Source of the DNA: Bdellovibrionota bacterium
Lineage (GTDB): Bacteria; Bdellovibrionota_C; UBA2361
NCBI GenBank assembly: GCA_044352465.1
Contig: JBILDU010000001.1
Span: 20,211-84,210 of the forward strand
Reading direction: 5' to 3'
DNA: 64,000 nt
Made by a program: the position numbers and the translations under genes. This document shows, one piece after another, positions 2,932 through 57,432 of this stretch. Position 1 is the first letter of the stretch. The number at the start of each line of letters is the position of its first letter. The notes under the pieces are model-generated. The model did not search any database. It was not told where the DNA came from and was given only the letters and a program-made list of their open reading frames with translations.

Positions 2932-2986
2932 GCGCGCTACCCCGCCCCTGTCAGCCATCGGGCGAAAAACTGAGGTCTGCGACCGT

Positions 2987-31315: not shown

Positions 31316-32695
31316 ATGGCGGGCGGCCCATCGACTGACCAAAAAGTGGTTGGAGCCCAGGAAGGGCTCGTCGAGTCGGCCAGCCATGAGCGAGCCCCGA
31401 ATGGGCGAGTAGAAGTGGTAACCCAGCGCGAGCTGTTTTGGGCGTGGCTTCCGCTCTGGGTAAGCTGGTTCGCGATGGCGCTTGAGGTGCCGGTCATTAC
31501 GAGCGCCATTTCGCGCTTACCCGATCCCGCGGTGAACCTCGCCGCTTTGGGGGGAATTCTCATCCCGGTAAGCTTCATCATCGAGGCGCCGATCTTGATG
31601 CTTCTCTCCGCCGCCACCGCGCTCTGTAGAGACAGGTTGGCGTATCGGTTTCTCTTCCGCGTGATGATGGTGCTGGGGAGCGTGCTTTCCGTTGTGCATC
31701 TTCTTATCGCGCTGACCCCGCTCTATGACACGATAACTCGGGATATCCTTGGGTGTCCCGAGGAGGTACGCGAGGCGGCTCGAGTAGGATTTCTCGTCAT
31801 GACACCGTGGACGTGGTCGATCGCCTACCGACGATTTCTCCAAGGCGTCGTTATTCGACTCGGACGATCGCGAGTTGTCGGGTTCGGCACCGTCGTTCGA
31901 CTGGCTACCAATATCGTGACAGTACTGGTGTGTTTCTACGGGATTGAGGCGGGTGGGGCCCTGACCGGAGCAGCTGCGCTCACCGCGGGGGTAATGGCCG
32001 AAGCGTTATTTATCGGGGTTGCGGCGCGAGTGGTCGTTCGTGAGCGGTTACGCGAAGCCGACCCCGTGGTAGAGCCATTAACGCTTCCCCGGTTCTTCTA
32101 TTTCTATGCGCCGCTTGCGCTAACGGCGCTACTTGATTTCTTGATCCAACCTCTCTCCAGTGGTGCGCTGAGCCGTATGCCTGAGCCGGTAACTGGCCTC
32201 GCGTTGTTACCAGTTGTGGGTGGCTTGATGTTCTTGCTGCGCGGTCCAGGGTTTGCGTTCAACGAGGTCGTCATATCGAAGCATGGCCGAGAGGGCGCGG
32301 CTCTGGAGCTTGCGCGATTTGCGAGACGTCTCACTCTGCTGAGTGGGGCGGTCGGACTTTTATTTATGGCAACCCCTCTTGGCGCCGTTTGGTTTAGCGG
32401 GATCGTGAAGCTGCCACCGGAGATGGTGGTGCTTGCTCGGCAAGCTCTTTGGCTTGCACTCCCCACACTCCTTGCCGCCACGGTAAAGAGTCTCTATGGG
32501 GGCACCCTCGTCTCTCTGCACCGCACTCGCGCGATATCAGAGGGGACGATTTTGTATGTTCTGACGTTCGGTTTCGTTGTGAGTGTCGGGATAGTGGGAC
32601 AGTCTTCCGCAGGGATCTTCGTCGTGATCGGAGCGATGTCGACTGCGGCGGTCGTTCAGGTGCTGTGGCTTCGGAAGCGGTCGCTCGAGAGGTAA
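31316..32695 (+). CDS. Polytopic inner-membrane protein (12+ TM), possible MOP/flippase-like transporter
   Basis: 459 aa with many hydrophobic helices throughout. No diagnostic motif, so the family is unassigned. Confidence 0.6.
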   Translation: MAGGPSTDQKVVGAQEGLVESASHERAPNGRVEVVTQRELFWAWLPLWVSWFAMALEVPVITSAISRLPDPAVNLAALGGILIPVSFIIEAPILMLLSAATALCRDRLAYRFLFRVMMVLGSVLSVVHLLIALTPLYDTITRDILGCPEEVREAARVGFLVMTPWTWSIAYRRFLQGVVIRLGRSRVVGFGTVVRLATNIVTVLVCFYGIEAGGALTGAAALTAGVMAEALFIGVAARVVVRERLREADPVVEPLTLPRFFYFYAPLALTALLDFLIQPLSSGALSRMPEPVTGLALLPVVGGLMFLLRGPGFAFNEVVISKHGREGAALELARFARRLTLLSGAVGLLFMATPLGAVWFSGIVKLPPEMVVLARQALWLALPTLLAATVKSLYGGTLVSLHRTRAISEGTILYVLTFGFVVSVGIVGQSSAGIFVVIGAMSTAAVVQVLWLRKRSLER

Positions 32696-35804: not shown

Positions 35805-37406
35805 TTGTTGGAGATTTCACCATTTTGGGGGAGTCCCCCCTCAAGTTCGGGAAAAGACTCTCATTCCTTACCAAATCGACCGATATACCTCGAAGCCTAC
35901 GCAAAGTTGGTGAAGGGTTTCGGGATGGTGTCAAACGCAGAACGTACTCAACGGCGAGATCTGTCCGAGCGTCGTTTAGGAGAGGCGTTTAAATACGTCG
36001 CCCGTGGGTGGATGCCGGTGCAAGCGCCGGTGCTCAAAGATGTCCAACGTAAGCTGGCCGGAAAGCTCTACGAGGGCCGACCGAACGATCTGATCGCGGA
36101 CCTGCGAAACGACTTTTCACTCTTCACCTACTGTTTTCGTCAGCTCGGCCAAAAAGTCGCTGGCGAAGACCGCCTGAGAAGCCCGCTCGATCTCCTGCGC
36201 TCACGTTCACATCGGGAGCTCACCGAAATATTCGGTGTCGGCGGTAATGAGGTTAGCAGTCACGACTTCATCGGGATGAAAGAAGTCCAGCTCCTTCGGC
36301 TCAAACACCAACTGGTGAGTTGCGCAACCGTTGAGTTAATCGCGGAGAAGCAAGGTATCGACGTTGATATCGCCGTGATGGCCGCACTTTTTCGTCAGCT
36401 CGGAGTGGCGCTTGTTGCCTGGAATTATCCGAGTACGTGCGCGAAAGCGCTCAGTACTTACGGAGGAGGGCCCGCCGATGCTCCGCTTCACTTCGACGAT
36501 GAAATCTCAACTATCGTTGGCTTCGATCCGCACCGGTTAGGGAAGGAGTTTCTCCTTAGTTGGAACGCCGACCCCGTTATGCGTCTTGCTTTAGCGAGAG
36601 GCGATGCGGGAGAAGAAGACGAGGAGATCGACGATTCAACCCGTGAGCTTGGCGATGGTGTGCGGCGAATGTGTCAGGTGGGTGAGGCCCTCGCCCGCAC
36701 GAACGACCCCAACTTCTATCCCCGGGCGGTGCAGCGGTGGCGTGAAGTTGAGGGCGAGGTTATCTATTTTCTCGGTCAAGATGGCCTGGAACGGATTCGT
36801 GAGCACTTAGTGGAGCGGTACGCTCACTATGTTGGCTTCGCCCCCAAGCTTTTGGGGGCAGCGCTGTCTCCGCAGCGTCAGGTGGATGTTGTCAATAAAC
36901 ACTACGCGGAGAAGCGCTACGCCGCGAACGAGCACGCGCAGCGTTGTCCTGAGCCGGTGAAAGTCGCCTTTAAAGGGGTTTACGACTCGATCACACAGAA
37001 CCGGATCTCCACCGTGGCATTGAACGGTCTCGTCGGCGAGGTGGTACCGAAGACGGGCTTTCTGCGTGGGTGTGTCTATATTCTCGATCCGAAGCGGATG
37101 GTTTTGGTTCCGCGGTTGCGGCTCGGCGAGACGCGCGAATATCGCCCGGTGAGTTGTGCGTGTGGCGGTGAACGGTCACATCCCGTCTCGGAGGCGTTTC
37201 ACTGTTCGATGCCGATAGTCGAAGAGAACGTTTTTCTGAACGGAGACTTTGTCTCTCACGTTACCGGGAAGTTCGGTAACATCGATAAGGTGGGGATACT
37301 CTACCTGGAGATGACCGAAGCGCTCCGCGAGGTTGATCGGGAAAATCGTCTGCTCTACTTTAAAGCGATTCGACAGTGCCTGAACGACTGTCTTAATCTC
37401 CACTAG
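35805..37406 (+). CDS. Hypothetical cytoplasmic protein (possible HDOD-like signalling domain)
   Basis: The likely start is the Met at 35925. The N-terminal region (APVLKDVQRKLAG...LIADLRNDFSLFTYCFRQLG...) loosely resembles the HDOD pattern. 533 aa. Confidence 0.45.
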   Translation: MLEISPFWGSPPSSSGKDSHSLPNRPIYLEAYAKLVKGFGMVSNAERTQRRDLSERRLGEAFKYVARGWMPVQAPVLKDVQRKLAGKLYEGRPNDLIADLRNDFSLFTYCFRQLGQKVAGEDRLRSPLDLLRSRSHRELTEIFGVGGNEVSSHDFIGMKEVQLLRLKHQLVSCATVELIAEKQGIDVDIAVMAALFRQLGVALVAWNYPSTCAKALSTYGGGPADAPLHFDDEISTIVGFDPHRLGKEFLLSWNADPVMRLALARGDAGEEDEEIDDSTRELGDGVRRMCQVGEALARTNDPNFYPRAVQRWREVEGEVIYFLGQDGLERIREHLVERYAHYVGFAPKLLGAALSPQRQVDVVNKHYAEKRYAANEHAQRCPEPVKVAFKGVYDSITQNRISTVALNGLVGEVVPKTGFLRGCVYILDPKRMVLVPRLRLGETREYRPVSCACGGERSHPVSEAFHCSMPIVEENVFLNGDFVSHVTGKFGNIDKVGILYLEMTEALREVDRENRLLYFKAIRQCLNDCLNLH

Positions 37407-38186: not shown

Positions 38187-39236
38187 TCATCGGACGAGTG
38201 TCAACGGAGCTCCACCGATACGTTGCCGTGTGATTCGGCCGTGGACATCGGCTAGTTCAACAACGATGGGTGCCTCGGAAAATGAGTCGCTCGGAAGGGG
38301 ATGGTACTCGCCGATATACCCACCGGGGGTCCGCTCAATCATTGGGATCGAGCGTACGAGCGTTCCAACCGAAAACGTTGCGGTGAGCTTCTCGGTCCCA
38401 GCCATCACCACCGTCAGATATCCCCGCTCAGAGAGCGTTCCACCGATACCGTCGTGCGCCGAGCTAAAGATCGCGGGAGGGGGGGATTCAAGAAATTCGG
38501 GGCGTCGGTCGACCCGAAGCGGTTCGACTGCTTCTGCTACCACACGGCGGGCGAGGTCGGTGACAAGTTTGTTGTCGAGTCCCTTGAGCGGCTCAATCAG
38601 GAGATCGGAGAAGCCGGTCGGGCCTTTGGTGAGCCCGCGACTATCCGAATCGACGCTCGTGGACCGAAAAAGTACCGCGCCATCGGTAGCGGAGATAAGC
38701 TCTAGATCCACCCCAACCGTCGTCACCGATTCGATGCCGTAATAACGACGATCCCAGCGGGTTATGCGGCCGTAGAGGATAGCATCGCAGCTCAGATGAT
38801 GAATACAGATCTCCTTTGTCGGAGTGGCGAACAGCTTTCTTCGGTCAAGGGAGAGATCGGGGGTAGCGAAGCCGTGATGCAGAAGCTCACCTTGGACTAC
38901 CGCCGGTGAGATGAGGTCGAGGGCGGAGCTCTCTTTCAGCGAACTTCGTACCACCCGCTGGACGAACTGTGTCGGCATTAGCGGGGAGCGCGAGGAGATG
39001 AGAGCAACATCGTCGATGAGGAGGTCGGGATTCTCCTCGATGATCTCGCGCGCAGCATTGACTTGAACAAACGGTAGGATGGCCACCCGGATGGGCGCCG
39101 CAGGGTTGAAATTGAGCTCGTGTTTGAGGCTCGTGGTACAACCGCTCAAAAGGAGAGCAAGTAAAAAGACCATTACGCCACGGTAACGTTCGACGGCGTG
39201 AGAACGTGACTGAGCCCGGAGAACCTTGGTGCTCAT
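38187..39236 (-). CDS. Lipoprotein with CsgG/LpoB/DUF799-like N-terminal module
   Basis: Lipobox LLSGC, then IRVAILPFVQVNAAREI (the VA[IV]LPF motif of periplasmic lipoprotein families). 4-bp overlap with the upstream gene. Confidence 0.55.
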   Translation of the reverse strand: MSTKVLRAQSRSHAVERYRGVMVFLLALLLSGCTTSLKHELNFNPAAPIRVAILPFVQVNAAREIIEENPDLLIDDVALISSRSPLMPTQFVQRVVRSSLKESSALDLISPAVVQGELLHHGFATPDLSLDRRKLFATPTKEICIHHLSCDAILYGRITRWDRRYYGIESVTTVGVDLELISATDGAVLFRSTSVDSDSRGLTKGPTGFSDLLIEPLKGLDNKLVTDLARRVVAEAVEPLRVDRRPEFLESPPPAIFSSAHDGIGGTLSERGYLTVVMAGTEKLTATFSVGTLVRSIPMIERTPGGYIGEYHPLPSDSFSEAPIVVELADVHGRITRQRIGGAPLTLVR

Positions 39237-40378
39237 GCTCCCCCTTTCGACTCGATAGTATAAAGGCGGGGCTCAGAGAGGAGCCCGTTTCGGTCGACGG
39301 CGATAAGCGCAAGGGTGGGGTATCCGCGGAACTTGGCGGTCGGTCCTCGCCACGACGGCCCTCTGCGTTCAGCGATCTTCTCGAAAGGCCCAGCAGGAGT
39401 AGGGGCGCGGTATATAAGAACCTTGACGGTGGCGCTTGGACACGGGGAGGTGAGTGTTACCGCACCGGGAGCAGCAGTGGCAACGAGCTCTCCCCGGCAA
39501 CTGTCGCTCGACTGAGGAGGAAGAGCTCCGAGGGCAAACCGGGTGGCGGTGCCGAAGACGTCCCGAAGTTCGGCTTCCGCGCCGACAAATTGCTCCGGAT
39601 CGACGACAAGATAGTTACTGCAATAGCGGCCCGGGGAGACCTCGCGCAGGTTAGTTTTAGTTTTATTCCTTAGTACCACGACTCCCTGTGCGTTGGGCGA
39701 ACCGAAGAGGCATACCTCATAAACCGCCGCTCTTTTGGGGACGATCGAGGCACGCTCAATATTCGGTGGGGTCACCGCACCAGGGGCGTCACTCTCGGGG
39801 GGGCGAGGGATACTCGTCACCACGGTTTGGGCATACTTCGCTGCAAGCGTTGCGAACGCGGCGTCGTCGCTATTTCGGATCTGCGAGATGAGCCCCTGAA
39901 ATATCTGGCCGGAGTTAAAGAGGAGGCCACCCCGCTCGCTCTCGGTGTGCTTGATAGCGAGAAGCTCGTTTCCCTCGACGTCGGTGAGGGTGAGTCGCCC
40001 GGAGATAGAGTTGTAATAGCCAGCAAGAAAATTATTCCGTGAGGCTTTATCGATGGTAAGGGTTGCAAAGGCGTCGATAGGATACCTGGCGATGAGCTTG
40101 TCCCGCTCTCGGCAGGTTGAATCGGTGCAGATACTATCGATAATCGCCCGGTCAATCGTGCTCAAACCGTGATTGGTGACCTCGTTCTCGAGCGCGGTGC
40201 GCAACGTCGCGACCCGCTCACGCGGGATCGTGGCGGTTGAGCTCGGCGGTAGTATCGCTACGGTGTGAAGTCTCTGATTTAAGAAAAGGGGAGACTGGTT
40301 GACTTTGGGCATCCCGCAACCGCTGCAGGTGGCCACGATAAAGAGAGAGAGGAGGAGGAGCCGTCTTACCGAGTGCAT
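39233..40378 (-). CDS. Lipoprotein paralogous in architecture to 38187-39236
   Basis: Lipobox CSGC, then HTVAILPPSST... Similar layout to the downstream lipoprotein. 381 aa. Confidence 0.55.
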   Translation of the reverse strand: MHSVRRLLLLSLFIVATCSGCGMPKVNQSPLFLNQRLHTVAILPPSSTATIPRERVATLRTALENEVTNHGLSTIDRAIIDSICTDSTCRERDKLIARYPIDAFATLTIDKASRNNFLAGYYNSISGRLTLTDVEGNELLAIKHTESERGGLLFNSGQIFQGLISQIRNSDDAAFATLAAKYAQTVVTSIPRPPESDAPGAVTPPNIERASIVPKRAAVYEVCLFGSPNAQGVVVLRNKTKTNLREVSPGRYCSNYLVVDPEQFVGAEAELRDVFGTATRFALGALPPQSSDSCRGELVATAAPGAVTLTSPCPSATVKVLIYRAPTPAGPFEKIAERRGPSWRGPTAKFRGYPTLALIAVDRNGLLSEPRLYTIESKGGA

Positions 40379-41968: not shown

Positions 41969-44167
41969 CTACTGAGGAGCTACTACCCCGGCATAGCGAT
42001 ACCAGATTCGGGCGTCCGCGGGGATAGAAAAAGAAAGCGCGAGGGGTTCGATCGCGCCGGCCCGGGATGGAAGCGGGAAGCTAAACTCGTTCCATTGGCC
42101 GTTTGCAGTAACGGTAGCTTCGCTCACCGTAAAGTCGGTGCCGTCCGTTCGGACTTTTACGGTAAACGGGATATGCGGCTCGTTGGGGGCGTAAAGCGCC
42201 TTCAACTCGAGGCGTAAGATTCCGTTTGATCGGCTCGGTGCGAGGATAATCGTATCCTCCTTGAGCCGGATCGCTGAGGTGAGCTCGAAAAGGTAACGGC
42301 CACTACCATCGCTCTCGATATATCTGATGTCATCCCCGAAACGAGCCGCTTTTTCCATAACCCCTCCGCCCGAGCGGGGATCGTTCACGATGATATAGCG
42401 GAGTCCAGCGATGGCGGCGAGCTCCCGAATCGCCCGAGCACTGGGAAAGTCGGCGGTATCGTGCGCGAGCTGAGTGAAAAATCGCGGCACTCGCTCCGTC
42501 GTTGGATTGACGAGACGTAACGCGGGAGTAAGAGGGGCGCGATGGACCGTTGCAATCAGAGATGAACTTCGGGTTAAAGGCTCGGCGAAGGGGAGCACGA
42601 TAAGAGCGCTCCCGGGGAGGGCCCTCTCATTGAGTGTGCGTTCGATGTTACCGCTCCTGGGGGTCGGGGTCGTCGGGACCCCGCAACTTGGGTAGCGGTC
42701 CGCGAGAAGCACCGCGCCGAGTAAAGTGACGAGGAAGACCCGTTGTTTCGTGCGTCGGAGCAACCGGGTGAGGCTAAATGCGCCAAGAACGGTGAGCGCA
42801 AGAGAAAATGGGATCATCCCCGCAATGGCGGACGATATCGGGAGGAAAGAGACGAGCGTTCCGATGATCGAGAAAAGTGAGAGGTCTTTGGAAGACGAGG
42901 CTCCGTATGTCGAAGGACCGAGTGCATAGATCAGGAAAAACGAACCGATAAATGCAAAGAGTGCGATAAGATCCCGGTTCGTCACGATCTGAACATTGAG
43001 TTGACGCTCGAGCCCTCCGAGCCGCCGTAGGAGCGCCAGCGGAGAAAAAAAAGCGACCACAAGTAAAATAAATCCGCTTCCGAACCACACCCTTTGTGCG
43101 TGCGCATCAAAAAGAATGAGGCTGAGGACTGCGAGGATCCAGAGAGCGAGAAGGCTGCGTAAATGGCGTGAATCGGTGAGCCGGTATAGGGCGATGAGCG
43201 CACCGATCGATACGATGAAACCGAAAATTCCGGGAAGGAAAGACCCTTCTCCGAGAGTTTGAAAGAGACACCGGGAGTCCCCCAAGGTAACGGTCGGAAG
43301 GAGCTTCTGAACGGTCAGTGTTCGAGCTTCAACTGAGTCTGCGGCAAGTGGTTGAAGAGTCGGAGTGGTCTTCGTGTACATGAAAACCACCAGCAACGTC
43401 GGGAGGAGCCCGAGGGCCATTCCACCCAGAGGGCTGCGAAAACGGGAACACAGGGCTGTCGGGGGGTGCGCGATGGTCAAACCGAGGAATACTAAAAGCG
43501 CGGCCCAGATGCTTATGACGGCGATATCGATGGAGGTCAGCGTTGCGATGACGATGAGGCTACCGAGGACCACGCCGTTTCGAAATGTCGGCGTACCGAT
43601 TATCGCCAGAGACGCCGATATCACCAGTGGGAGGAGAAACGCCGCCTGGAGCGCCGGGTTGAGGTCGAGCATCAGAAACGATGGACCGAGAAGAAATACG
43701 CCTCCCCCCAGAAGGCTTGCTAGCCCGGAACCGGTGAGTTGATAGATCAAGCGGAACGAGCAGTACCCATTTAAGACGGTGGCGCTGAGTAAGAGGATAT
43801 TAAAGAGCGCATCGGAAGAGAGCCCCAACGCTTTGAGTGGAGCGATGATGAGGCTTGGAAAAAGAAGGTTATCCCCCCACCCTAACGAACCGTTCCACGG
43901 ATAAGCGCTGATAGTGGAGAACCATTCGAGGAGGAACGGGGCCCGGATATTTGAATCGAGGGTATAGAGAGCTAGGTGGGCGTAAGCGCCCCCGAGAAGA
44001 GTTGAGCCAACTTCGCCGAGCGAGGGCAAAAAGACGGCGAGCGTGAGAATAAGATAGGTGACAAGAGCGCCCACGCTCAATCGAAAAGAGGGGCGGTAGA
44101 GCGGTAGAAACTCAGCCGGAGCCGGGGTAGTTTTCGAAGCGTCGGTATCGTCGTGTCCCGGAGACAT
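41969..44167 (-). CDS. Large polytopic membrane protein with C-terminal periplasmic domain (possible GT-C-fold glycosyltransferase, YfhO/ArnT-like)
   Basis: 732 aa, more than 12 hydrophobic helices in the first ~480 aa, then a ~250-aa soluble domain. Function is inferred only from this architecture. Confidence 0.6.
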   Translation of the reverse strand: MSPGHDDTDASKTTPAPAEFLPLYRPSFRLSVGALVTYLILTLAVFLPSLGEVGSTLLGGAYAHLALYTLDSNIRAPFLLEWFSTISAYPWNGSLGWGDNLLFPSLIIAPLKALGLSSDALFNILLLSATVLNGYCSFRLIYQLTGSGLASLLGGGVFLLGPSFLMLDLNPALQAAFLLPLVISASLAIIGTPTFRNGVVLGSLIVIATLTSIDIAVISIWAALLVFLGLTIAHPPTALCSRFRSPLGGMALGLLPTLLVVFMYTKTTPTLQPLAADSVEARTLTVQKLLPTVTLGDSRCLFQTLGEGSFLPGIFGFIVSIGALIALYRLTDSRHLRSLLALWILAVLSLILFDAHAQRVWFGSGFILLVVAFFSPLALLRRLGGLERQLNVQIVTNRDLIALFAFIGSFFLIYALGPSTYGASSSKDLSLFSIIGTLVSFLPISSAIAGMIPFSLALTVLGAFSLTRLLRRTKQRVFLVTLLGAVLLADRYPSCGVPTTPTPRSGNIERTLNERALPGSALIVLPFAEPLTRSSSLIATVHRAPLTPALRLVNPTTERVPRFFTQLAHDTADFPSARAIRELAAIAGLRYIIVNDPRSGGGVMEKAARFGDDIRYIESDGSGRYLFELTSAIRLKEDTIILAPSRSNGILRLELKALYAPNEPHIPFTVKVRTDGTDFTVSEATVTANGQWNEFSFPLPSRAGAIEPLALSFSIPADARIWYRYAGVVAPQ

Positions 44168-45256: not shown

Positions 45257-48200
45257 CTACTTCGAGCCCGCTGAAGTGGTGCCGCGCGGTCGCTGAGGGG
45301 CGCGTTTTCTCATTGCCGTGGCGCGCTTGCTCGGCGCTGCGGGACTACCGGCCTTCTCCCCTCGTAAAAGGGTTCCCCACGGGGTCGCCGCGAGAGCGAG
45401 TTCGAGCGGTGAGCCTGAAAAGACGACCTGACCGCCGTGTGCGCCCGCACCGGGACCAAATTCGATGATGTGATCAGCCGCGCGAATCATATCCGCATCG
45501 TGTTCGATGACGAGCACGGTATGGCCACGCTCAACCAAGGCACGGAGGGTTCGAACGAGCTTTTCCACGTCGGCTTTGTGGAGTCCGGTCGTCGGTTCGT
45601 CGAGTATATAAATGGTGTGGCCCCGTCGCTCGGCACTTAACTCTGCAACGAGCTTGAGTCGCTGGCTCTCCCCTCCGGAGAGGGTGGGAGAGCTCTGGCC
45701 CAGCGTCAGATAGCCCAGCCCGAGCTCCACCGCTTGGCGGATCGGCTCGATAATCTTGCGGTGGTGAGTAAACTTTGCTCGCGCTTCCTCAAAGGTGAGT
45801 GCGAGTACGTCGCTGATGGTAAGGTCAGCGAACCGAACCGTCTCAGCTTCGTCGTTAAAGCGGCGACCGCGGCACGCTTCGCATTCAACCCACGCATCGG
45901 CGAGGAAGTTCATCTCGACCTTGAGTTGGCCCTGACCTTTACATTCCGTGCACCGACCTTTTCCCGTATTATAGGAGAAGAAACCGGTCCCCCAGCCGCG
46001 TGCCTTGGCTTCGATAGTCCCCGCGAAGACCGAGCGAATCGTATCCCAGATGCCCAGATATGAGGCTGGAGTCGAACGCGAATTGATGCCGATCGGTTTT
46101 TGGTCGACCTGCAGAATCCGGGCGATTTCGAGAGAGGAGGTGATGACGGTATCTCCTCGAGTCCAGCGGCTTTTCTCCTCATCTCCAAGGGTGAGAGTGT
46201 CCGCAATAATACCGTGGACGAAGGAGCTTTTCCCCGCCCCCGAGACTCCGGCAACAACAACGAGCTGTTGGAGGGGCAGAGAGAGCGCGAGGTTCGCGAT
46301 GTTGTGCTTCGATCCCCCATGAATTTGAAGCGCGGCCCCGCTTCGTGTGCTCTCCCGTGGTGCCGGGGTATTGCCCTCAGAGCGAAGTGCTTGCGCTGTC
46401 ACGCTGGCGTCGCTCAGAAGAAAACCGTCCCGTGGTCCTGCAAAGACGATCTCGCCACCGTTCTTTCCACCACCTGGCCCGACATCGATAACGTAATCCG
46501 CCGACCGTATGGCATCCCCGTCGTGTTCGATCATGATGACCGCGTTTCCGCGGTCGCGCAGGGCGCGGAGGCGGCTGAGCACTTTGACATTATCGAGTGG
46601 ATGCAGTCCCACACTCGGCTCATCGAATATGTAAATCACACCCGTCAAAGGGGAGCCCATCGCGGTTCCGAGGCGTAGCCGTTGAAGCTCTCCGCCCGAG
46701 AGCGTCGTACACTCTCGCTCGAGCGTAATCTCTCCGAGCCCTAGCGCCTCGAGGGTCTCAATCTTTGAATCAAGCTCGCTGATAATGGGGAGGGCGATCG
46801 TTCTTTCGCGCGGGGAAAAGTCGAGCGCCTCAAGGAAGCTCCGGAGGCCGTTCGGAGTAAGCTGGGACGCTGCATAGATATTACGCCCGCAAAGTTGCAA
46901 GTGTCGCCCGAGGGTCTGAATGCGCGCCCCGCCGCATTCGGTGCAGACGGCGTCACCCCGCCCCTTGCCCGTGCCCTCACACCGCGGACACCGCCCGCGG
47001 GGCGAATTGAATGAGAGATCTTCCGGATCCGGCTTGAAAAAACCCCGTTGGCACACGGGGCAGGTTCGCTCAGTGCTGTAGACCGAATCCGCGCCGTCAG
47101 CTGACACGATGAGGGTTCCGCTGCCGAGACTGAGCGCCTGTTCGACCCCGGCGACGATGAAATCGGGGGTGACCTGATTCGGATTAAACTGCGCCACGAG
47201 GTATTCAATCGTGTGAGGCTTGCTCTTCTCGAGCCCCGCACCGATGTTCAGACTTGAAGTCTTAAAAAGGACACCATCAACGCGGACATGCGATATCTCG
47301 GCATCGATTGCACGCTGGAGTACCGCCTTGTGATTTCCCTTTTTGCCTTTAATTATCGGGGCGAATATTCGTACCGACTTCGCCACGATCTTCTTGAGGA
47401 GGTGCGATATCTCGAGGGGAGCGAGCGCGGCGATCCGTTCAGTCGGGTGATCGGGACAGTATTGGGTTGCGGTCTTGGCGTAGAGAAGGCGGAGGAAGTT
47501 ATAGATCTCCGACATCGTCGCCACCGTTGACAGACGGGACGGTTGAAATGTGTGCTGATAGACGCAGATTGTGGGAGCGATGTTGGTGAGGCTATCGATC
47601 TCCGGTCGTTTTAACTCTTTGATGTATTGTCGAGCATACGGTGAGAGGCAGTCGAGATAGCGGCGCTGTCCCTCCGCGTAGATGATATCCTTGGCGATAC
47701 TCGACTTCCCTGAGCCAGAGACCCCGGTAAAGACGACTACTTGGTCGAGTGGGATATCGAGCGAAACGTTTTTGAGGTTGTGCTCCCGAGCTCCCCGAAT
47801 AGAGAGATGGGACGGTGATGGTACCGCCGGACGGGGTGTTTGTGGTTGAGCGGTACGCTTCGACGTGGCGAGAAACTCACGCAAGGCTCGAGCCGTGTAT
47901 GAGGTCCGGCTTGCCGCCGCAGTCTGAAAATCTGCCGGGGGGCCGGCGAGCAGGACCGCGCCACCTCCTGCTCCCCCCTCGGGACCTAGGTCGATAATCC
48001 AGTCAGCGGCACCGATGAGGAGGAGGTTGTGTTCGATACACAGTACCGCATGCCCCGCCGTGCGGAGAAAGTGAAAGAGCTCAATCAGGCGCTCGACATC
48101 GCGAACGTGGAGACCGGTGGTGGGCTCATCGAAGATGAACAGATTGCGGCCCCGCCGACCGTGTTCGAGATACGGGACGATCTTGAGCCGCTGGGCCTCG

Positions 48201-50749
48201 CCACCCGAGAGCTCGCTGAGCGAGTGCCCGAGGGTGAGATGACCAAGGCCCAGCCGCGAGAGATTATGGGCGGCTCGGGCAACGGTGCTGTCTTCAGGGA
48301 AAAATCGGTGGCACTCATCGACCGACATGCCGAGAAAGTCGTCGGCGTTCTTCCCCCGATAGGTGACCTCAAGAACCGGAAGCTGGAAGCGTTTGCCCTG
48401 GCAAACCTCGCAAACGATGTATACGTCGCTCAGAAACTGCATGTCCTCGCGAATATGCCCTGCTCCCTTACACGCCGCACACCGCCCGGCATCAACGTTG
48501 AAGGAGAACGTACTTTTCGTAAATGCCCGCATCGTCGCCCCGTCGCTGGCGGCGAGGAGTTCGCGGATCGTATCCCAAATGCCGGTATAAGTGGCGATAT
48601 TCGCGCGCGGGCTCTTCGTCAGCGGCGATTGATCGACGAGAAGGATCTCGTCGAGATGCTCGAACCCAGAGACCGCATTCTCGCCTTCGGCAGACGGTTC
48701 GCCCCTTTGAAATCGTTCGTACGCTGCCATGACGACTTCGTGGACGAGGGTGCTCTTTCCGCTTCCCGAGACCCCGGTGAGGCAGACAAATGCATCGAGG
48801 GGGACCGTTACCGAGATGTTCTTCAGATTTCGGACAGTAGCTCGCGCTATCGTCAAAGCTCGGTCGGTAGCCATGAAGGGGGCGGGGCGGGGTAACTTCC
48901 AGGAGATCCCCGGCCACAACGCCGCGCTCCCGTTAAAGGTAACCTCTCCGCCCTGCTGCCCGGCCGCTGGTCCCATCTCAATGATGTGGTCAGCTGACTC
49001 GATACAGTCAAGGTCGTGTTCAACGACGAGAAGGCTGTTGCCCCTTCGTTGAAGGCGAATCATCGCCTCGATCAGGCGCTCGGTGTCGCGGGCGTGGAGT
49101 CCAACCGAAGGCTCATCAAGAACAAAGTGTGTCGAGATGAGGTCGCTTCCCAAAGCCGTGGTGAGGTTCACCCGTTGGGTTTCACCACCGGAGAGGGTGC
49201 GCGATTGACGATCCAGAGTGATATAGGGAAGACCGAGGCTCACGAGGTAGTCGAGTCGTGCTATCACTGCAGCCAGAACATCGCGCACCTCGTTCGGGTA
49301 CCTCCGTCGACGTCGTAGCGTCTCTTCAAGATCGCGCATCCACGTCAGGAGCTCACCGACCGGCATACGCCAGATATCGGGCAATGTCCTGCCGTTGATT
49401 CGGTAGGTGAGTCCCTCGCGCTTCAATCGAGTTCCCGCACATTCCGGGCAGAGAAATTGGCCACGGTATTTAGCGAGGAATACCCGGACATGCATTTTGT
49501 AGGCCTTGCGCTCAAGTCGCTTGAACCAAGGTTCAACCCCCCGGTACTCCCGTGAGGTATGGGTGAAGATTTGGTCGTGCTGCTCGGGTGTGAGCGTGCG
49601 CCATGGACGATCGATGGGAATCCCGTGGGTGCGACAGAATCCTAATAGTCGGCGTCTTTCGACTCGACCTGCCTTCCCCGCCCAACAGTCGAGGGCATCC
49701 TCCTCGATTGAGAGGAGTGGGTTTGGGACGCAGCGCTTACGATCCACCCTCAGGACGTGGCCGAAACCCTTGCACTCAGCGCACGCCCCAAGAGGGTGAT
49801 TGAAGGAGAAAAGAGAGGGCTTCGGCGTTCCAATGGCGACGTGTCCCCCGGGGCAGACGAATGAACTATGGTAATCGGCGTGAAAGTGTCGCTCGCCCGG
49901 CGTTCGGGTGGGGGGACCAAAAGTACTGCCTCGAATAAACGGTCGGAACCCTCGGGGGGTCACATCGATGACGGTGCAACTCCCCCCGCTCAACGTAAAG
50001 CATTGCTCGACCGATTCGCGGAGTCGCTTTGAGTTTAAGCTTCCGCTCTTCATACGATCGACGATGATGACGAGCTCGGAGATATGGCGAAGTCGCTCGG
50101 GTGGCGTCTCCTCGAGAAGCTCAATTGCTCCCGTCGTATCGTCGAAGTATCGCCCAAACCCCAGAGTCTTGAGCCGCTCGATCTCGAGTTCCCGCGTTTT
50201 CGGAGTAAAGCTTACCCGTGCCCCGATAAGGAGTGTGGGGCTCTGGCGGAGCTTTTGCAGTTCGAGGACATGTTCGGTGAGTCGGGTGGGAGTCCAACGC
50301 GTGAAGGCGATTTCGCAGTTCGGGCACACCGGTTCGGCGACCGCGCCCCACAGGATCTTGAGGTAGTCGTTGATATTGGTCATCGATCCTACGGTTGAGC
50401 GAGAGCTCAATACGCGTGTGCGCTGCTCGATGGCGATCGCTGGGCGAACGTTATCGATACGCTCGACGGCCGGTCGTTTGACCTTATCAAAGAATTGGCG
50501 GGTGTAAGGGGAGAAAGTTTCAATATAGCGGCGTTGGCCCTCAGCATACACCGTATCGAAAGCCAGCGACGATTTTCCCGATCCGGAAATGCCGGTCACT
50601 ACCGTGAAGGCGTCGTGAGGGATGTCGAGAGAAACCCCCTTAAGGTTGTGCTCGGTGGCCTGAATGATATGGAGAGATTTATGTTTCACCGGGCGCGTGG
50701 GCGGTTGGTAATGGCTAAAAGCATAGCTGTTCACCCGCATCAGAAGCAA
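45257..50749 (-). CDS. uvrA: Tandem-duplicated UvrA-like ABC ATPase (two complete UvrA modules in one 1830-aa polypeptide)
   Basis: Four Walker A motifs ([36 protein letters not shown]) and four LSGGE(T/A/L/S)QR signatures. Each half has UvrA-type CxxC zinc modules (e.g. CAACKGAGH...CEVCQGKRF and CTECKGQGQ...CEACRGRRF). Confidence 0.9.
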
Positions 50750-52317: not shown

Positions 52318-52539
52318 GTGAAATCAGACAAGAATCACCGCGAATTTATTGAAGCGTGGCGAAAAGCCGCTCGTGTATTGCACGAGGTGCGGGCGCGGGA
52401 ATTGCCGGAGATCGACACCGTCGCGGGCCTTCAAAGTTTGTTGCCAGCTTTTGCGGCGAGCGTGCGTCAAACTGAGCTGCGCCCCTCCTCGGGTCTTCTG
52501 GAGCAGCAGAGGATTTTTGCCCGACGGATAAGTCGATGA
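52318..52539 (+). CDS. Small hypothetical protein, translationally coupled to downstream nucleotidyltransferase (candidate antitoxin/partner)
   Basis: 73-aa ORF whose TGA overlaps the downstream ATG (ATGA at 52536-52539). No family recognised. Confidence 0.3.
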   Translation: MKSDKNHREFIEAWRKAARVLHEVRARELPEIDTVAGLQSLLPAFAASVRQTELRPSSGLLEQQRIFARRISR

Positions 52540-53102
52540 AAAATATCTTCGAAGAGGCCTTTGCTCTCCAAGCATTCTTGCTGGAAAAGTCACTGCGGTT
52601 TTGTTTTATTGGGGGCTTAGCGCTCCAACGATGGGGAGAGCTTCGAACAACAAACGATATTGACCTCACCATTCTGACCGGCTTTTCGGGCGAAGGAAAG
52701 GTCGTTGACCTCCTTCTCGCGAGGTACCGAGGACGGATTGCGAATGCACGCGAGACAGCTCTCGCCGCGCGAGTACTTCTTCTAAAGTCAGATGCTGGAG
52801 TGGGTATCGATATCGCCTTGGGAGGAATGCCGTTCGAAGAATCAACGATTCAGCGAGCATCGGAAGGTGAGTACCTACCGGGAATTAGTTTAAGAACCTG
52901 TTCGGCTGAAGACCTCATCGTGCATAAAGCGTTTGCCGCTCGCCCAAAGGACTGGCTCGATATCGAGGGCATAGTTTTGCGACAGGCGGTCCTTGACTGG
53001 CATTACATTGAAGCCCAACTGGTGCCTCTCCTCGATTTAAAAGAGGAGCCAGAGCACTGGGACGCTCTCATCAAGCTGCGTCGACGACTTCGAGGGGAGT
53101 AG
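52536..53102 (+). CDS. Nucleotidyltransferase-fold protein, AbiEii/minimal-NTase-like
   Basis: FIGGLALQRWGELRTTNDIDLTI fits the G[GS]x9-13DxD polymerase-beta NTase motif as seen in AbiEii-like toxins. A C-terminal DLIVHKAFAARPKDWLDIEGIV segment follows. 188 aa. Confidence 0.55.
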   Translation: MKNIFEEAFALQAFLLEKSLRFCFIGGLALQRWGELRTTNDIDLTILTGFSGEGKVVDLLLARYRGRIANARETALAARVLLLKSDAGVGIDIALGGMPFEESTIQRASEGEYLPGISLRTCSAEDLIVHKAFAARPKDWLDIEGIVLRQAVLDWHYIEAQLVPLLDLKEEPEHWDALIKLRRRLRGE

Positions 53103-53185
53103 CGAGTGGCGTCAGGTCTTTCGAGTAAAAAGGCAATGGATCCCACTCGAGGACCGGGCTGAAAAAGCCGTCCGGAGGAGACTTC

Positions 53186-53830
53186 TTAAAACCGTGGCAT
53201 CGTTACGCCGAGCGCATCGAAGACGAATTCGAGTCCGTGGAATAGCGCGTAAAAGATGAGGCAAAAATAGGCGATCGTCACGATTGTGAGGCCGATCGAG
53301 ACGAGGACGAAGAGACCATCATCTTCGAGTTCGGCGATGCAAGCGGCGATGATCGCCAAAGCCGGTAAGGTGTTGTTAAAAGGGATTCCGAAAAATGGAA
53401 TCGCCATGAGGAGTCCCGCGATAATGATCAGAGCCCCGATGAGCTTATCGCCCCGTTCTCCGGCGAGAAGGTACTGTTGCCGCGGACGGGTAAAGCGCCC
53501 GCAGATAGAGACGACTTTACGACACACCCATAAGAGGCGTTGCCATGTTTTCTGGCCGGGCGCGATCGAACGAATCCGTTCCGGTAGCCACGGAGCTGTG
53601 CGACCATTCGCCAGTTGCCATCCCAGTGCGGCGAACGTGAGCCCGCCGATGGTTGCCAGGGGCCCGAGCGAGATCGGCTGCAGAAAAGGCAAACAGAGAA
53701 TGATGCAGATAAGGCTAAAGGTTGACTCTTTGAGGTTGTCGAACGCTTGCCCGAGCGTTAGCTCTTCTCGTTGCGCGCGGTCCTCACATTCAGAGAGCGT
53801 CTTGATAAGTTCTTCGTAGGTTACCGACAC
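53186..53830 (-). CDS. exoD: ExoD-family exopolysaccharide synthesis membrane protein
   Basis: The ~214-aa, 4-5 TM layout with the cytoplasmic N-terminus MSVTYEELIKTLSECEDRAQREELTLGQAFDNL... matches the ExoD family. Confidence 0.75.
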   Translation of the reverse strand: MSVTYEELIKTLSECEDRAQREELTLGQAFDNLKESTFSLICIILCLPFLQPISLGPLATIGGLTFAALGWQLANGRTAPWLPERIRSIAPGQKTWQRLLWVCRKVVSICGRFTRPRQQYLLAGERGDKLIGALIIIAGLLMAIPFFGIPFNNTLPALAIIAACIAELEDDGLFVLVSIGLTIVTIAYFCLIFYALFHGLEFVFDALGVTMPRF

Positions 53831-54495: not shown

Positions 54496-54990
54496 ATGAG
54501 GAAGGATTCTCGTAAGGCGACCCCTAAAGTCGCCGATCTCTTGACCCCGTTGGTCAACGAGATTCTCGAACGCACCAGCAAGTGTGTTCGAATCTGGCAC
54601 GAGAACGACATCGCGGTGGTTGGAACCGATAACCGCGATGTCACCGAGGTGGAGGCGACGATCACGGGGCTGTTGCGTGTGGTTCCGCGGGCGGAAGCTG
54701 AGGCTCGCCTGCGTGGACTGTGCAACTGCGCCGTGAAGCGCCCCAAGCTGCTCGACAAGCTGAAGCTCGTCGCCGCAGCGCTCGAAGGGGAACACCCGCG
54801 GGCTCGTCTCAAGGGGAAGCGCCACAAGCACGATGTTCGGCTGCTCACGGATGAACTCCGGGGTGGCCTTCTCGTGACGGTGCAGACCTTGTTCGAGCGT
54901 ACTGGTGCCCCGCAGCACAAGGTGACCCCGCTTGCTTCGGCTCGCGGTGTCGTTCCGTCGCAGGGCAGTCAGACCAGCGCAAGGAGGTGA
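54496..54990 (+). CDS. Hypothetical cytoplasmic protein
   Basis: ATG with AAGGAG 7 bp upstream. 164 aa with a protein-like composition; the overlapping minus-strand 318-aa ORF is low-complexity junk. Confidence 0.45.
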   Translation: MRKDSRKATPKVADLLTPLVNEILERTSKCVRIWHENDIAVVGTDNRDVTEVEATITGLLRVVPRAEAEARLRGLCNCAVKRPKLLDKLKLVAAALEGEHPRARLKGKRHKHDVRLLTDELRGGLLVTVQTLFERTGAPQHKVTPLASARGVVPSQGSQTSARR

Positions 54991-55117: not shown

Positions 55118-55507
55118 TTAGAAAGCTCCGGTGCGGAGCATAACCAGCGTGCACGCTTCGAGAACAGCGATACCGTTTTCCGCAAGCTGTTGTTGGAGTG
55201 CCGTGTTTTCTGCGCCAGGATTAAAAATAACTCGATGTGGGCTCAGCTCAATGAGTCCTTGTGCGAGTCGAGTTGAGATCGTTGGACCTACATACAGCGT
55301 CACCGTGTGGATTGGGGTGTTTTTCGCGGCAAGAATTGAAATATCCGAGTATACCGGTCGCCCCGCAATTGAGGTGAGGCGCGGCGACATGAGATGCACC
55401 GTATGGCCGTAGTCTTCGAGCATCTGCATCGCCATGTAGGCATAGCGAGCAGGATTATCGGAGGCTCCTATGAGCGCGACCGACAGGGCGGTTGAAGCGA
55501 AATTCAT
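55118..55507 (-). CDS. CoA-binding domain protein (YccU/YneT-like)
   Basis: ALIGASDNPARYAYMAMQMLEDYGHTV is the CoA_binding_2 signature. Probable start at the Met at 55507. Confidence 0.75.
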   Translation of the reverse strand: MNFASTALSVALIGASDNPARYAYMAMQMLEDYGHTVHLMSPRLTSIAGRPVYSDISILAAKNTPIHTVTLYVGPTISTRLAQGLIELSPHRVIFNPGAENTALQQQLAENGIAVLEACTLVMLRTGAF

Positions 55508-55776
55508 CGACTGAATATCGCACATATTTCCGCACGGGCGAAACCGGAGGTGGAGTGTCGGTGGTGTGCTTCATTTTTGTGTAGGTGCTGTAGTCAGCTG
55601 AAAAAACTATACTTTTAGCCCCGTTTGGAGGCGGGTGCGCGTTAGACTAGCTCCCCGAATTCCCGTAAAATGAGGTGTTGGTATGCGGCGACGTCTCATC
55701 GTGAAGCGTCTGGTCGCAATACGAGCGGGGGACCTGGGGTTAAACACCGACAGGTTATCAAATTCAAAGAGATCGC

Positions 55777-57432
55777 GTGCGCTACACGGGAGTCGACACT
55801 CATCGTTCCTTCGATCCGGAGCATCCCGGTGCCGTTGGGCACTCCTTGCGAAGAATTATCTTCGACCAGAGCCGGTCGGAGTTCCAAAGAGCTGTCGACC
55901 TACTGGCTCTTTCGAAGCAGTGTCCCGCCCGCTCTCTCACTCCACAGAATCTCGCGCAGATATTTCTGGCCCTTGGAAATCTCGCCGAGCACGAACCGAC
56001 CGTGGCGCACTTTCTTGCTGACGGTGAGCCTCGCAAAGAACTGAGTCGCCTGATATCGATCGGCCAACGTCAACGCGATGGATTCGAGCCCCGCAACATC
56101 GCCGAGACTCTCCGTGGGCTTGCTTTTTTGGGGCGGGGTGACGAAACGTTTACCCATGCGCTGTTAGCTCGGGCAACCGGACTCGTGGATGATTTTGAGC
56201 CGGCTGATCTTGTGACGACCCTCGGCGCAGTGCGCATTATCCCACTCGACCGGGTGCATTTTCTTGAGGCCGCAAATCGTGTCCTGAGAGTGGCGGACCC
56301 GGATACTCAGTTCAACGAACTCGAGGTAGTGCTTGGAGCGTTGTATCTCACGGATCTACAGCAGGTCGACTCCGCTCATCTCTTTGTGGACTCGGCGATG
56401 CGTCGCCTCGATACCTTGGAGAGTCGACATATTGGAATCCTCGGAGCGGCGTTGACAAAGCTGCCTGAGGCATCAGACTACTATGCTCTCTCGGTAGCTG
56501 ATGAACTTGAGCGACGAATGGCTTGCGAGCCGGAGGCGGTTCCCGCTCGAGAGGTGGTTCAGGTGGTGGAGCTTCTTGGTCGGCGTGGCGCCTACCACAA
56601 AGGTTTTCTCGAAGCCTTTTGTCGGGAGTACGCCAACCGGCTGCATCAACTTTCGGACGACGAGTTGTGTGAGACGGCGCGTGGGCTCGCTCTTCTCGGC
56701 GAAGCTCAACCATCCTTTTTCCGGCGCCTTGCCGACGAGGCGCTCCTTCGCCTTGAGGGGCTCGATCCGGCGCACATCGCCGTTATTGCCTGGTCTTTTG
56801 CTAGTTTGGGTATTCGCAACGACACCATGTTTAATCGCTTGGCGGGAGCGATGCAGGGTCGGTATGGGGAATTTTCGCAAGCCGCCGCGGTCAACTTTGC
56901 GTGGTCGTTCGCGCCGCTCGACAACGTGGTTGCCCGGAGCGTGATCAGTCAAGCGGCGCGGCGATTTCGAAGCGATGAGACCGAGGTATTACTTGCTCGG
57001 CAGCTTCATATCGCCGAAATCGCTGTAGGAATAGTGAAGCCGGGGCAGTGCTCCGCTGAGATAATTGATCAAGCGCAAGCGGAAATCGGTGCGGGCGTGA
57101 TGAATGGGTTCGAGCAAGGGGTCCTGGAGAGCCTCCAGCGACTGAAAGTTCTGGGCGTCGCTGTCACGCCGTTTCAGGTGGTCGAGGGGCTCGTACCTGA
57201 TTTCGTTGTTTCACACGGTGGTCGGAAGATCGTGGTCGAATGTGATGGTACGAAGTTTCATCTGAATTCCGTCGGCGATCTGCGCGGCAACGATAAGATC
57301 CAAGACCAAGTCTTTCGCCGGTGTGGATACGAGGTTGTTCATATCCGCAGCGACGAGTGGTTAGGCCTCTCGCTCGCTGAGCGGGAGCCCTATCTTGCGG
57401 CCCGGCTCAATTTGCCGATCGGGCGGCTCTAA
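55777..57432 (+). CDS. Helical-repeat (OPR/HPR/FASTK-like) protein with C-terminal DUF559/RAP-like PD-(D/E)xK nuclease domain
   Basis: About nine ~36-aa repeats of pattern P..(I/L)A..L.(A/G)LA.LG...D..F..L. C-terminus VVSHGGRKIVVECDGTKFHL...GYEVVHIRSDEW matches the Vsr-like DUF559/RAP motif (E-x-D-G...H). Confidence 0.65.
   Translation: MRYTGVDTHRSFDPEHPGAVGHSLRRIIFDQSRSEFQRAVDLLALSKQCPARSLTPQNLAQIFLALGNLAEHEPTVAHFLADGEPRKELSRLISIGQRQRDGFEPRNIAETLRGLAFLGRGDETFTHALLARATGLVDDFEPADLVTTLGAVRIIPLDRVHFLEAANRVLRVADPDTQFNELEVVLGALYLTDLQQVDSAHLFVDSAMRRLDTLESRHIGILGAALTKLPEASDYYALSVADELERRMACEPEAVPAREVVQVVELLGRRGAYHKGFLEAFCREYANRLHQLSDDELCETARGLALLGEAQPSFFRRLADEALLRLEGLDPAHIAVIAWSFASLGIRNDTMFNRLAGAMQGRYGEFSQAAAVNFAWSFAPLDNVVARSVISQAARRFRSDETEVLLARQLHIAEIAVGIVKPGQCSAEIIDQAQAEIGAGVMNGFEQGVLESLQRLKVLGVAVTPFQVVEGLVPDFVVSHGGRKIVVECDGTKFHLNSVGDLRGNDKIQDQVFRRCGYEVVHIRSDEWLGLSLAEREPYLAARLNLPIGRL

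Follow-up and report, generated by a model that had tools for sequence, protein, structure and literature searches.

A helical repeat array fused to a nuclease domain

We analyzed a 64,000-nucleotide stretch of DNA from a Bdellovibrionota bacterium (contig JBILDU010000001.1 of assembly GCA_044352465.1, positions 20,211 to 84,210; hereafter the window, to which all coordinates refer), concentrating on the gene at 55777-57432, which is predicted to encode an array of helical repeats followed by a C-terminal nuclease domain. The gene corresponds exactly to one open reading frame (ORF) on the plus strand, beginning with a GTG codon and encoding 551 amino acids (aa) plus a stop. No signal peptide, hydrophobic segment or targeting peptide was found in the 551-aa protein. 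A candidate weak sigma-70-like site lies upstream at 55643-55671; one such site was found versus 0.8 expected in shuffled sequences, which is not above chance. The features of the locus are listed here, with the evidence for each in parentheses where one applies.

55526-55776, no strand: upstream intergenic region, shared with the divergent CoA_binding_2 gene at 55118-55525 on the minus strand (window annotation)
55777-57432, plus: whole ORF, with predicted HPR/FAST-like repeats and a C-terminal Vsr/RAP-type nuclease (ORF list; full-length homologs)
55777-55935, plus: N-terminal cap, aa 1-53, with helices at aa 17-28 and 35-47 (AlphaFold2 model)
55936-57090, plus: predicted alpha-solenoid of ten helix-hairpin repeats, aa 54-438 (model, helix pairing, profile self-match, fold and profile searches)
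55936-56082, plus: repeat 1, aa 54-102, 49 aa, with an extra short helix (helix pairing)
56083-56193, plus: repeat 2, aa 103-139, 37 aa, F-E-P-R-N-I-A-E-T-L-R-G-L (helix pairing, alignment)
56194-56310, plus: repeat 3, aa 140-178, 39 aa (helix pairing)
56311-56415, plus: repeat 4, aa 179-213, 35 aa (helix pairing)
56416-56538, plus: repeat 5, aa 214-254, 41 aa (helix pairing)
56539-56649, plus: repeat 6, aa 255-291, 37 aa (helix pairing)
56650-56760, plus: repeat 7, aa 292-328, 37 aa, pairing with repeat 2 in the profile self-comparison
56761-56871, plus: repeat 8, aa 329-365, 37 aa, P-x-x-I-A-x-I-A-W-S-F-A-S-L-G (helix pairing, Pfam)
56872-56979, plus: repeat 9, aa 366-401, 36 aa, A-W-S-F-A-P-L (helix pairing, Pfam)
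56980-57090, plus: repeat 10, aa 402-438, 37 aa, with R408-Q409-L-H kept down to orthologs of 31% identity
57091-57429, plus: predicted PD-(D/E)xK nuclease domain of Vsr / MTES_1575 / RAP type, aa 439-551 (Pfam, alignment, Foldseek)
57103-57114, plus: helix alpha-1 motif N443-x-F445-E446, with the putative first acidic residue of the PD-(D/E)xK core (alignments)
57196-57261, plus: putative catalytic core P474-D475-F ... E488-C-D490-G ... H495 (invariant in alignments A1, A3 and A4)
57292-57306, plus: D506-x-x-Q509-D510, invariant in the bacterial subtype and L-K-x-R in canonical RAP (alignments)
57325-57360, plus: G517-Y-E-V-V-H522-I-R-S-D-E-W528, a RAP-like terminal strand/helix signature (Pfam RAP match at aa 487-540, alignments)

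The AlphaFold2 model, built from an alignment of the protein with six close homologs (7 sequences in all), has a mean predicted local distance difference test score (pLDDT) of 89.8 and a predicted template modeling score (pTM) of 0.78. It contains 25 helices up to aa 455, followed by a beta-rich domain; both the alpha-solenoid and the nuclease-fold domain that a first-pass annotation of this DNA, made from the letters alone, had proposed to look for in a predicted structure are present. Pairing of the helices yielded ten hairpin units, starting at aa 54, 103, 140, 179, 214, 255, 292, 329, 366 and 402, with lengths of 49, 37, 39, 35, 41, 37, 37, 37, 36 and 37 aa, respectively (mode 37). All six peptides quoted in the first-pass annotation were found (aa 56-74, 105-123, 334-350, 370-384, 486-495 and 520-528) and its proposal of tandem repeats held; its estimate of about nine units of ~36 aa is to be corrected to ten units of ~37 aa. 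The repetition exceeds chance, since a profile of the N-terminal half of the array (aa 54-254) aligned with one of the C-terminal half (aa 255-440) at E = 2.1e-5 in hhalign, placing repeat 2 on repeat 7. The unit most like OPR/FAST_1 is repeat 8, where the Pfam FAST_1 match (aa 339-383) begins. The N-terminal cap is basic (isoelectric point (pI) 9.3) and its conservation is lost in distant orthologs.

The polar residues that open helix A vary from one repeat to the next (QN, RN, AD, LE, RH, RE, DE, AH and so on). Across orthologs, Q57-N58 and R106-N107 are invariant in close relatives, as is the repeat 1 motif SLTPQNLAQI, and R408-Q409 is invariant down to orthologs of 31-33% identity. This combination, polar pairs constant across orthologs and variable across repeats, is what specificity-determining positions would show if they read a conserved target.

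The C-terminal domain keeps the motifs of a Vsr-type nuclease

In Foldseek comparisons, the C-terminal domain superimposed on RAP domains with template modeling (TM) scores of 0.70-0.74. We assessed conservation in an alignment of 18 relatives spanning 32-95% identity. Ten positions are the same in all 18 (F445, D475, E488, D490, G491, H495, D506, D510, G517 and H522), seven of them acidic or histidine (D475, E488, D490, H495, D506, D510 and H522), and five more are nearly invariant (N443, E446, C489, G504 and Q509). The E-x-D...H constellation, whose loss would have counted against the first-pass assignment of this domain to the DUF559/RAP (PD-(D/E)xK, Vsr-like) type, is thus fixed at D475, E488, D490 and H495, and that assignment is borne out by the fold, by motif conservation and by matches to MTES_1575, RAP and DUF559.

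The active site of Vsr is a D51/H69 pair; FASTKD4 has an asparagine at the Vsr His69 position and, despite its Vsr-like pocket, mutagenesis points to an inactive site (PMC11879112). Judged by motif position, D475 (in P-D-F) and H495 (in E-C-D-G-x-x-F-H) probably correspond to Vsr D51 and H69. With the full set of acidic and histidine motif residues kept, the nuclease is apparently intact. It should be noted that the JGI label 'very-short-patch-repair endonuclease' is an annotation transferred from the domain and constitutes no evidence of function.

These residues bear on whether the protein is instead a non-catalytic scaffold or RNA chaperone, its repeats binding RNA or protein and its nuclease fold serving only as a binding module, as in FASTKD4, the mitoribosomal RAP proteins and ASA2. 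The inactive FASTKD4 pocket (PMC11879112) offers a precedent, and mitoribosomal RAP/HPR proteins and ASA2, all structural components, are among the top structural matches described below. We nevertheless consider this explanation quite unlikely: ten nuclease positions are invariant in 18 sequences, and E446 nearly so, while the rest of the protein diverges fast, and FASTKD4 carries Asn where, by motif position, the invariant H495 would lie.

Alignment of all 86 retrieved C-terminal domains resolved two subtypes. The first, a bacterial subtype to which the protein studied here belongs, reads N-x-F-E / (T/P)-D-F / E-C-D-G-x-x-(Y/F)-H / G-x-D-x-x-Q-D / G-Y-x-V-x-H-(I/V) and is nearer to DUF559/MTES_1575; it is common to ~30 non-redundant retrieved proteins (42 with near-identical cluster members). 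The second is the canonical RAP subtype, E-V-D-G-P-x-H / L-K-x-R-x-L / G-W-x-V..I-P-Y-x-E-W, whose equation with eukaryotes rests on three organism-named proteins only. Set against canonical RAP, our protein has E-C-D-G-x-x-F-H, G-Y-x-V-x-H-I-x-x-x-E-W and the trailing L...YL helix, with QD in place of LKxR and H-I in place of I-P. A hidden Markov model (HMM) of the first subtype detected sequences of the second at 2e-14 to 1e-8. MTES_1575 was itself defined as a 'novel Vsr-family REase' (restriction endonuclease; PMC3710099). These comparisons suggest that the nuclease domain is intermediate between bacterial MTES_1575/DUF559 and eukaryotic RAP.

The repeats resemble organellar HPR/OPR/FASTK proteins in sequence and fold

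At E <= 10, the only Pfam matches in the protein were MTES_1575 (6.3e-9; 36.2 bits against a gathering score of 38.2), RAP (3.2e-4; 21.1 against 24.2), FAST_1 (1.6e-3; 18.7 against 27.4) and DUF559 (0.016; 15.5 against 20.6). At the same cut-off there was no match to TPR, Sel1, ankyrin, PPR or HEAT families, and TPR, Sel1 and ankyrin were likewise missing from seven homologs; the first-pass annotation had named TPR, Sel1 and ankyrin as the generic families that would undercut its proposal. NCBIfam returned no match. All seven of the close homologs matched Pfam RAP at E <= 1 (best 1.1e-4), and several relatives exceed Pfam thresholds: P0008, P0010 and P0014 for RAP (31.5, 33.2 and 26.1 bits, respectively), P0011, P0017 and P0018 for FAST_1, and P0012 for MTES_1575 (41.7 bits).

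Searched singly against the sequences of the PDB, the protein matched the Trypanosoma brucei proteins RESC6 ('RAP domain-containing protein'; 1.2e-6) and RESC8 (1.8e-6). A seven-sequence profile strengthened these matches to 9.6e-14 and 2.8e-10, respectively, added T. gondii mS140 at 1e-8, and also matched RESC4, mL162/mL157, Chlamydomonas mL115, Polytomella mL123 and ASA2. When the full model was compared with PDB structures in Foldseek, the best 41 matches, including all 32 at E <= 1e-3, were of HPR/OPR/FASTK type; the top ones comprise ASA2, Tetrahymena mL104, RESC6/8/4, many T. gondii mitoribosomal RAP/HPR proteins, Polytomella and Chlamydomonas OPR proteins, and the human FASTKD4 FAST1-FAST2-RAP crystal structure. 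Scanning 1.84 billion representatives exhaustively with an HMM recovered 3,831 proteins at E <= 1e-3, of which 113 reached E <= 1e-30; in many, the match was split over 5-13 separate stretches. The long multi-repeat matches that carry an organism name are all eukaryotic (three of three). Two of these, P0016 from Polarella glacialis and P0015 from Chrysophaeum taylorii, are annotated 'RAP domain-containing protein', with E values down to ~1e-58 for such proteins; the third, P0019, is a partial product of Polarella with no protein name.

The agreement of the profile, fold and HMM searches argues that the repeats are homologous to the HPR/OPR/FAST_1 class, beyond a likeness of shape. The first-pass view that the layout mirrors OPR/HPR/FASTK proteins is thus supported, both by the fold matches and by the RESC6 profile match (E = 9.6e-14). 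These data also bear on whether the gene is a chance fusion of generic TPR-like helices to a DUF559 nuclease, with no specific tie to OPR/HPR/FASTK proteins. The sub-threshold scores of all the Pfam matches to the protein and the silence of NCBIfam are what such a fusion would give. Against it are the lack of any TPR, Sel1, ankyrin, HEAT or PPR match at E <= 10, the RESC6 and RESC8 profile matches (about 1e-13 and 3e-10), fold matches specific to HPR/OPR/FASTK proteins, and eukaryotic RAP-domain proteins found at E values down to 1e-58 in 7-13 matched stretches, together with the recurrence of the architecture. A chance fusion is effectively excluded by the fold, profile and HMM searches, and we give it a very slim chance. 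Taken together, sequence and model predict that the protein is a cytoplasmic, single-chain bacterial homolog of the eukaryotic organellar HPR/OPR(FAST)-RAP proteins.

The gene is a resident of the chromosome and evolves fast

The window is a segment of a bacterial chromosome that spans the replication origin, since it contains a dnaA-dnaN-recF-gyrB row at 19.3-26.1 kb (dnaA at 19289-20710) and its GC skew changes sign at ~16-22 kb. It also carries topA, gidA and a cox operon. Some 35 kb separate the repeat-nuclease gene from dnaA, and the gene is oriented in the direction of replication. The nearest named GyrB relatives, at only ~70% identity, belong to metagenome-assembled genomes labeled Oligoflexia, Bdellovibrionota or Deltaproteobacteria. 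The gene is flanked by the divergent CoA_binding_2 gene on one side and by a convergent epimerase/DUF1731 gene on the other, followed by yqeY, an iron-dependent repressor, SCO1 and cox genes. This order is repeated in L001, GCA_041445565.1, L002 and L006/L007, where the ortholog (P0007) is 31% identical.

Within this syntenic block, the repeat-nuclease gene is the fastest-evolving member, while the nuclease motif residues are invariant. It shows 52-56% identity to its L001 and L002 counterparts versus 61-94% for the neighbors, and 31% versus 54-92% in L006; synonymous divergence (dS) is saturated at these distances. The protein has diverged most in its repeats, where 8% of positions are invariant compared to 18% in the nuclease domain. 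The gene does not stand out from the genome in GC content (0.579), third-position GC (GC3, 0.609) or codon usage, and it is single-copy, with no paralog in the 64-kb window. Its composition, its codon usage and a synteny that reaches down to 31% identity led us to reject a recent horizontal transfer. The gene is a resident, vertically inherited bacterial chromosomal gene. A scan of GTDB genomes recovered a single locus among 185,579 species, labeled 'Pseudomonadota bacterium', and an identical protein is encoded on 5 public contigs of up to 177,590 bp; the source samples are freshwater or unspecified environmental metagenomes.

Fast evolution is also what an arms-race gene would show, and could indicate an effector secreted into a eukaryotic host or prey, where it would bind or cut organellar or cytosolic RNAs; such a role has been proposed for eukaryote-like repeat proteins in intracellular bacteria. 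In keeping with this, GyrB places the organism near the Oligoflexia/Bdellovibrionota, some of which are predators, the great majority of the superfamily is eukaryotic, and the recorded bacterial look-alikes are host-associated: the Orientia tsutsugamushi RAP protein and Ralstonia RipS/SKWP (PMC7729196), and a Rickettsiella RAP protein. However, composition and codon usage are native, the syntenic slot is kept down to 31% identity, which speaks against recent transfer, and the nuclease subtype is nearer to bacterial DUF559/MTES_1575 than to canonical RAP. The protein has neither a signal peptide nor an SKWP motif, no secretion-system genes were found in the 64-kb window, and the source samples are environmental. 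We judge an effector role improbable.

Other genes of the window

A 1,830-aa duplicated UvrA-like ABC ATPase is encoded at 45257-50749 on the minus strand; it strongly matches mad3 of the candidate MADS defense system in PADLOC (7e-129) and has a 74%-identical ortholog at the syntenic position in L001. An AbiEii-like nucleotidyltransferase gene (52536-53102, plus) and an ExoD-family gene (53186-53830, minus) have no detectable homolog in L001, which spans the region; L002 also lacks both, but its contig starts only ~370 bp upstream of orf164, short of the region. The pair at 52536-53830 looks like a lineage-specific insertion. The 164-aa ORF at 54496-54990 (plus), just upstream of the CoA_binding_2 gene, has no Pfam or PADLOC match and is conserved in L001 (62%) and L002 (70%), from which we take it to be a real gene. 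The large ORFs at 26664-29591, 41969-44167, 35805-37406, 31316-32695 and 38187-40378 (975, 732, 533, 459, 349 and 381 aa) have no Pfam match at E <= 1e-5.

Relatives occur in several other bacterial contexts

Word-indexed searches returned only six close homologs, 42-94% identical over their full length, and at least one further protein when the broader alignment A2 was used; a metagenome scan with alignment A4 recovered only the P0006 contig and one nuclease-only match. Weak or faint Pfam matches to RESC6, RESC8 and MTES_1575 are already present on homologs in the databases. More distant relatives with the bacterial nuclease subtype lie in at least six other gene-dense bacterial contexts, at loci of 34-60% GC: next to pth, rplY and prs in L003/L004 (GCA_009926305.1), beside tyrS in L005, beside mutS, rpsA, pnp, rpsO and lpxA in L009, and beside ilvA and kdsB in L010, which has two tandem paralogs; L008 and L011 provide further contexts. 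The same repeat plus nuclease architecture recurs in many bacterial and eukaryotic relatives. Neighborhood conservation, a check named in the first-pass annotation, extends to orthologs down to 31% identity, which occupy the same slot; the contexts differ in more distant lineages.

Viral contigs from IMG/VR (L012-L018) contain relatives of the nuclease domain only (matching aa ~436-530 at 27-41% identity), of DUF559/MTES_1575 type and without repeats; a phage origin of the architecture was rejected on this basis. PADLOC assigned the protein to no defense system, giving only a weak domain-level match to the nuclease end of Hhe (E = 4e-4, 15.6 bits).

Some relatives have additional modules. P0010 (L005:8001-11714; 1,237 aa) has a complete transketolase (Transketolase_N + Pyr + C) fused at its N-terminus, and L005 also encodes a separate split transketolase at 1872-3617; P0012 and P0014 have a degenerate Transketolase_N-like N-terminal extension (898-910 aa). 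Of the two adjacent paralogs of L010 (1802-3727 and 3751-5523), the second has a nuclease domain scoring 31 bits versus 93 for the first, which suggests an active/degenerate pair.

A proposed function in RNA cleavage

The most likely function would be that of a site-specific endonuclease, probably acting on RNA. We put a probability of roughly 0.5 on the protein being a site-specific endoribonuclease or RNA-maturation factor, by analogy with FASTKD5. Solenoids of this class bind RNA in RESC complexes and in mitoribosomes, HPR proteins bind RNA and not DNA, and recombinant FASTKD5 alone cleaves its RNA substrates, in a reaction reported to be metal-independent. On these grounds, we propose that the solenoid recognizes sequence or structure in an extended nucleic-acid strand, which would most probably be single-stranded RNA, and that the array would present a defined phosphodiester bond to the attached Vsr/RAP nuclease. 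The target may be a cellular molecule conserved within the lineage, since the polar residues that open several of the repeats are invariant among orthologs.

Several observations weigh against this proposal. No nucleic-acid ligand, RNA partner or conserved operon partner has been identified: a search of the whole window against Rfam gave no RNA family, and hence no candidate RNA partner, and no partner gene is conserved across the bacterial contexts examined, the neighborhoods differing between lineages. Every Pfam match of the 551-aa protein falls below its gathering threshold, and the AlphaFold2 alignment has only 7 sequences. Neither catalysis nor RNA binding is guaranteed by an HPR/RAP fold, since FASTKD4 has an inactive site (PMC11879112) and ASA2 is a structural subunit of ATP synthase. 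The protein is acidic (pI 5.5, and 5.1 in the repeat region); we give this less weight because 44% of canonical RAP-type matches also have a pI below 7. Lastly, the nearest bacterial relatives of the nuclease (Vsr, DUF559, MTES_1575 and I-Bth0305I) act on DNA, Vsr proper by nicking at T:G mismatches.

An alternative in line with this last point is that the protein is a DNA-targeting nuclease, the solenoid either reading DNA in the manner of mTERF or TALE proteins or recruiting the enzyme to a DNA-bound partner, and the Vsr-like domain nicking or cutting DNA in repair, in restriction-like defense or as a domesticated homing enzyme. However, no DNA-binding solenoid (mTERF, TALE or AlkD-like) figures in the best 50 fold matches, and no methyltransferase, helicase or other defense partner lies nearby; the gene is single-copy, is not mobile and occupies a stable housekeeping slot over deep divergence. 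In addition, the FASTK review states that the helical insertions with which Vsr clamps its duplex are missing from FASTK-type domains. An enzyme acting on DNA is unlikely in our view, and we favor cleavage or maturation of RNA.

Comparison with known repeat proteins and nucleases

The human FASTK family (FASTKD1-5; FAST_1-FAST_2-RAP) is mitochondrial, whereas the protein studied here is bacterial and lacks mitochondrial targeting. It is also more compact and regular (ten repeats in 551 aa) and has no Pfam FAST_2 match. Its D...ExD...H and QD/H set is complete; in FASTKD4, by contrast, Asn takes the place of the catalytic His, and FASTKD5 reportedly works independently of metal. The alveolate and algal HPR/OPR-RAP proteins (the T. 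gondii mitoribosomal proteins, mL115/mL123, ASA2) are nucleus-encoded and organelle-targeted, form large paralog families and are often structural parts of ribosomes. Our bacterial gene, by contrast, is present once per genome region, and the RAP subtype of its product is ECDG / QD / GYxVxH instead of EVDGPxH / LKxR / GWxV..IPYxEW; no PPPEW motif is present in the protein. The strongest likeness at the sequence level is to RESC6 and RESC8 (Pfam PF26188 and PF26172), the former itself annotated as a RAP-domain protein. These act in a multiprotein complex that binds guide RNA (gRNA) and mRNA in kinetoplastid mitochondria, and no such partners are encoded near the bacterial gene.

On the bacterial side, Vsr, DUF559 (NGO0050, 3hrl), the MTES_1575 REase and I-Bth0305I either are short DNA enzymes that stand alone or form domains of helicase/HEPN conflict proteins. 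They lack an HPR/OPR solenoid, and the C-terminal 'H-I-x-x-x-E-W..L' tail of our protein is RAP-like in comparison. PRORP, in which PPR repeats are joined to an NYN metallonuclease, fuses helical-repeat RNA recognition to a site-specific metallonuclease and would be a functional analog only; its repeat family and nuclease fold are unrelated to those described here, and there is no homology.

Bacterial RAP-domain proteins are not wholly new, having been noted before in Orientia and Rickettsiella. Orientia KJV97331.1, the RAP protein of Candidatus Rickettsiella isopodorum and the SKWP effectors (RipS and XopAD, of Ralstonia, Xanthomonas and Mesorhizobium) are bacterial proteins with OPR/PPR-like repeats, the first two also with a RAP domain; the Orientia protein and the RipS/SKWP effectors were recorded earlier (PMC7729196). 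By their descriptions, these are set apart from our protein: their sources are obligate intracellular or plant-associated bacteria, and they have been interpreted as effectors or as acquired horizontally, whereas ours is encoded by a syntenic chromosomal gene of environmental bacteria. The SKWP effectors have SKPW repeats of ~42 aa with RdRP-like (RNA-dependent RNA polymerase-like) or kinase modules and no nuclease, in contrast to the 37-aa period and C-terminal nuclease found here, and our protein has no SKW/SKPW motif. The HPR paper reported none in bacteria, with three genomes sampled, and a 2025 FASTK review states that bacteria lack fastk genes. Our literature search found no paper on an HPR-nuclease family that is inherited vertically in environmental bacteria, is catalytically intact and has a nuclease subtype of its own, and a search for DUF1601 found nothing.

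Implications for the HPR/OPR/FASTK-RAP family

In the literature, HPR/OPR/FASTK-RAP proteins figure mostly as eukaryotic, and the architecture has been known chiefly from RNA-processing proteins of mitochondria and chloroplasts. These proteins play a major part in regulating mitochondrial and plastid RNA, and their RNA-recognition code, RAP catalytic status and origin are unresolved (PMC12687428, PMC12691811). The DUF559-type motifs and deep synteny of the bacterial gene argue against a recent transfer from a eukaryote, without proving a bacterial origin. A possible but doubtful extension of our proposal is that compact HPR-nucleases with intact motifs are the prokaryotic, and perhaps ancestral, form of the FASTK/HPR/OPR-RAP proteins: modular, sequence-reading endoribonucleases acting on a housekeeping RNA in free-living bacteria, with a nuclease bridging DUF559/MTES_1575 and RAP. 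Even as a DNA-cutting enzyme or an effector, the protein would widen the range of uses known for the HPR/OPR repeat class.

Small, regular and confidently modeled, the protein would offer a tractable model for the biochemistry and structure of the repeat-RNA interface and of RAP catalysis, and a possible scaffold for designer RNA endonucleases. It would also inform the question of whether fusions of repeats and nucleases in bacteria gave rise to the eukaryotic family. Were the prokaryotic, perhaps ancestral, interpretation true, it would contradict the view that FASTK-type genes are absent from bacteria and would supply a simple bacterial system in which to decipher the HPR/OPR RNA-recognition code.

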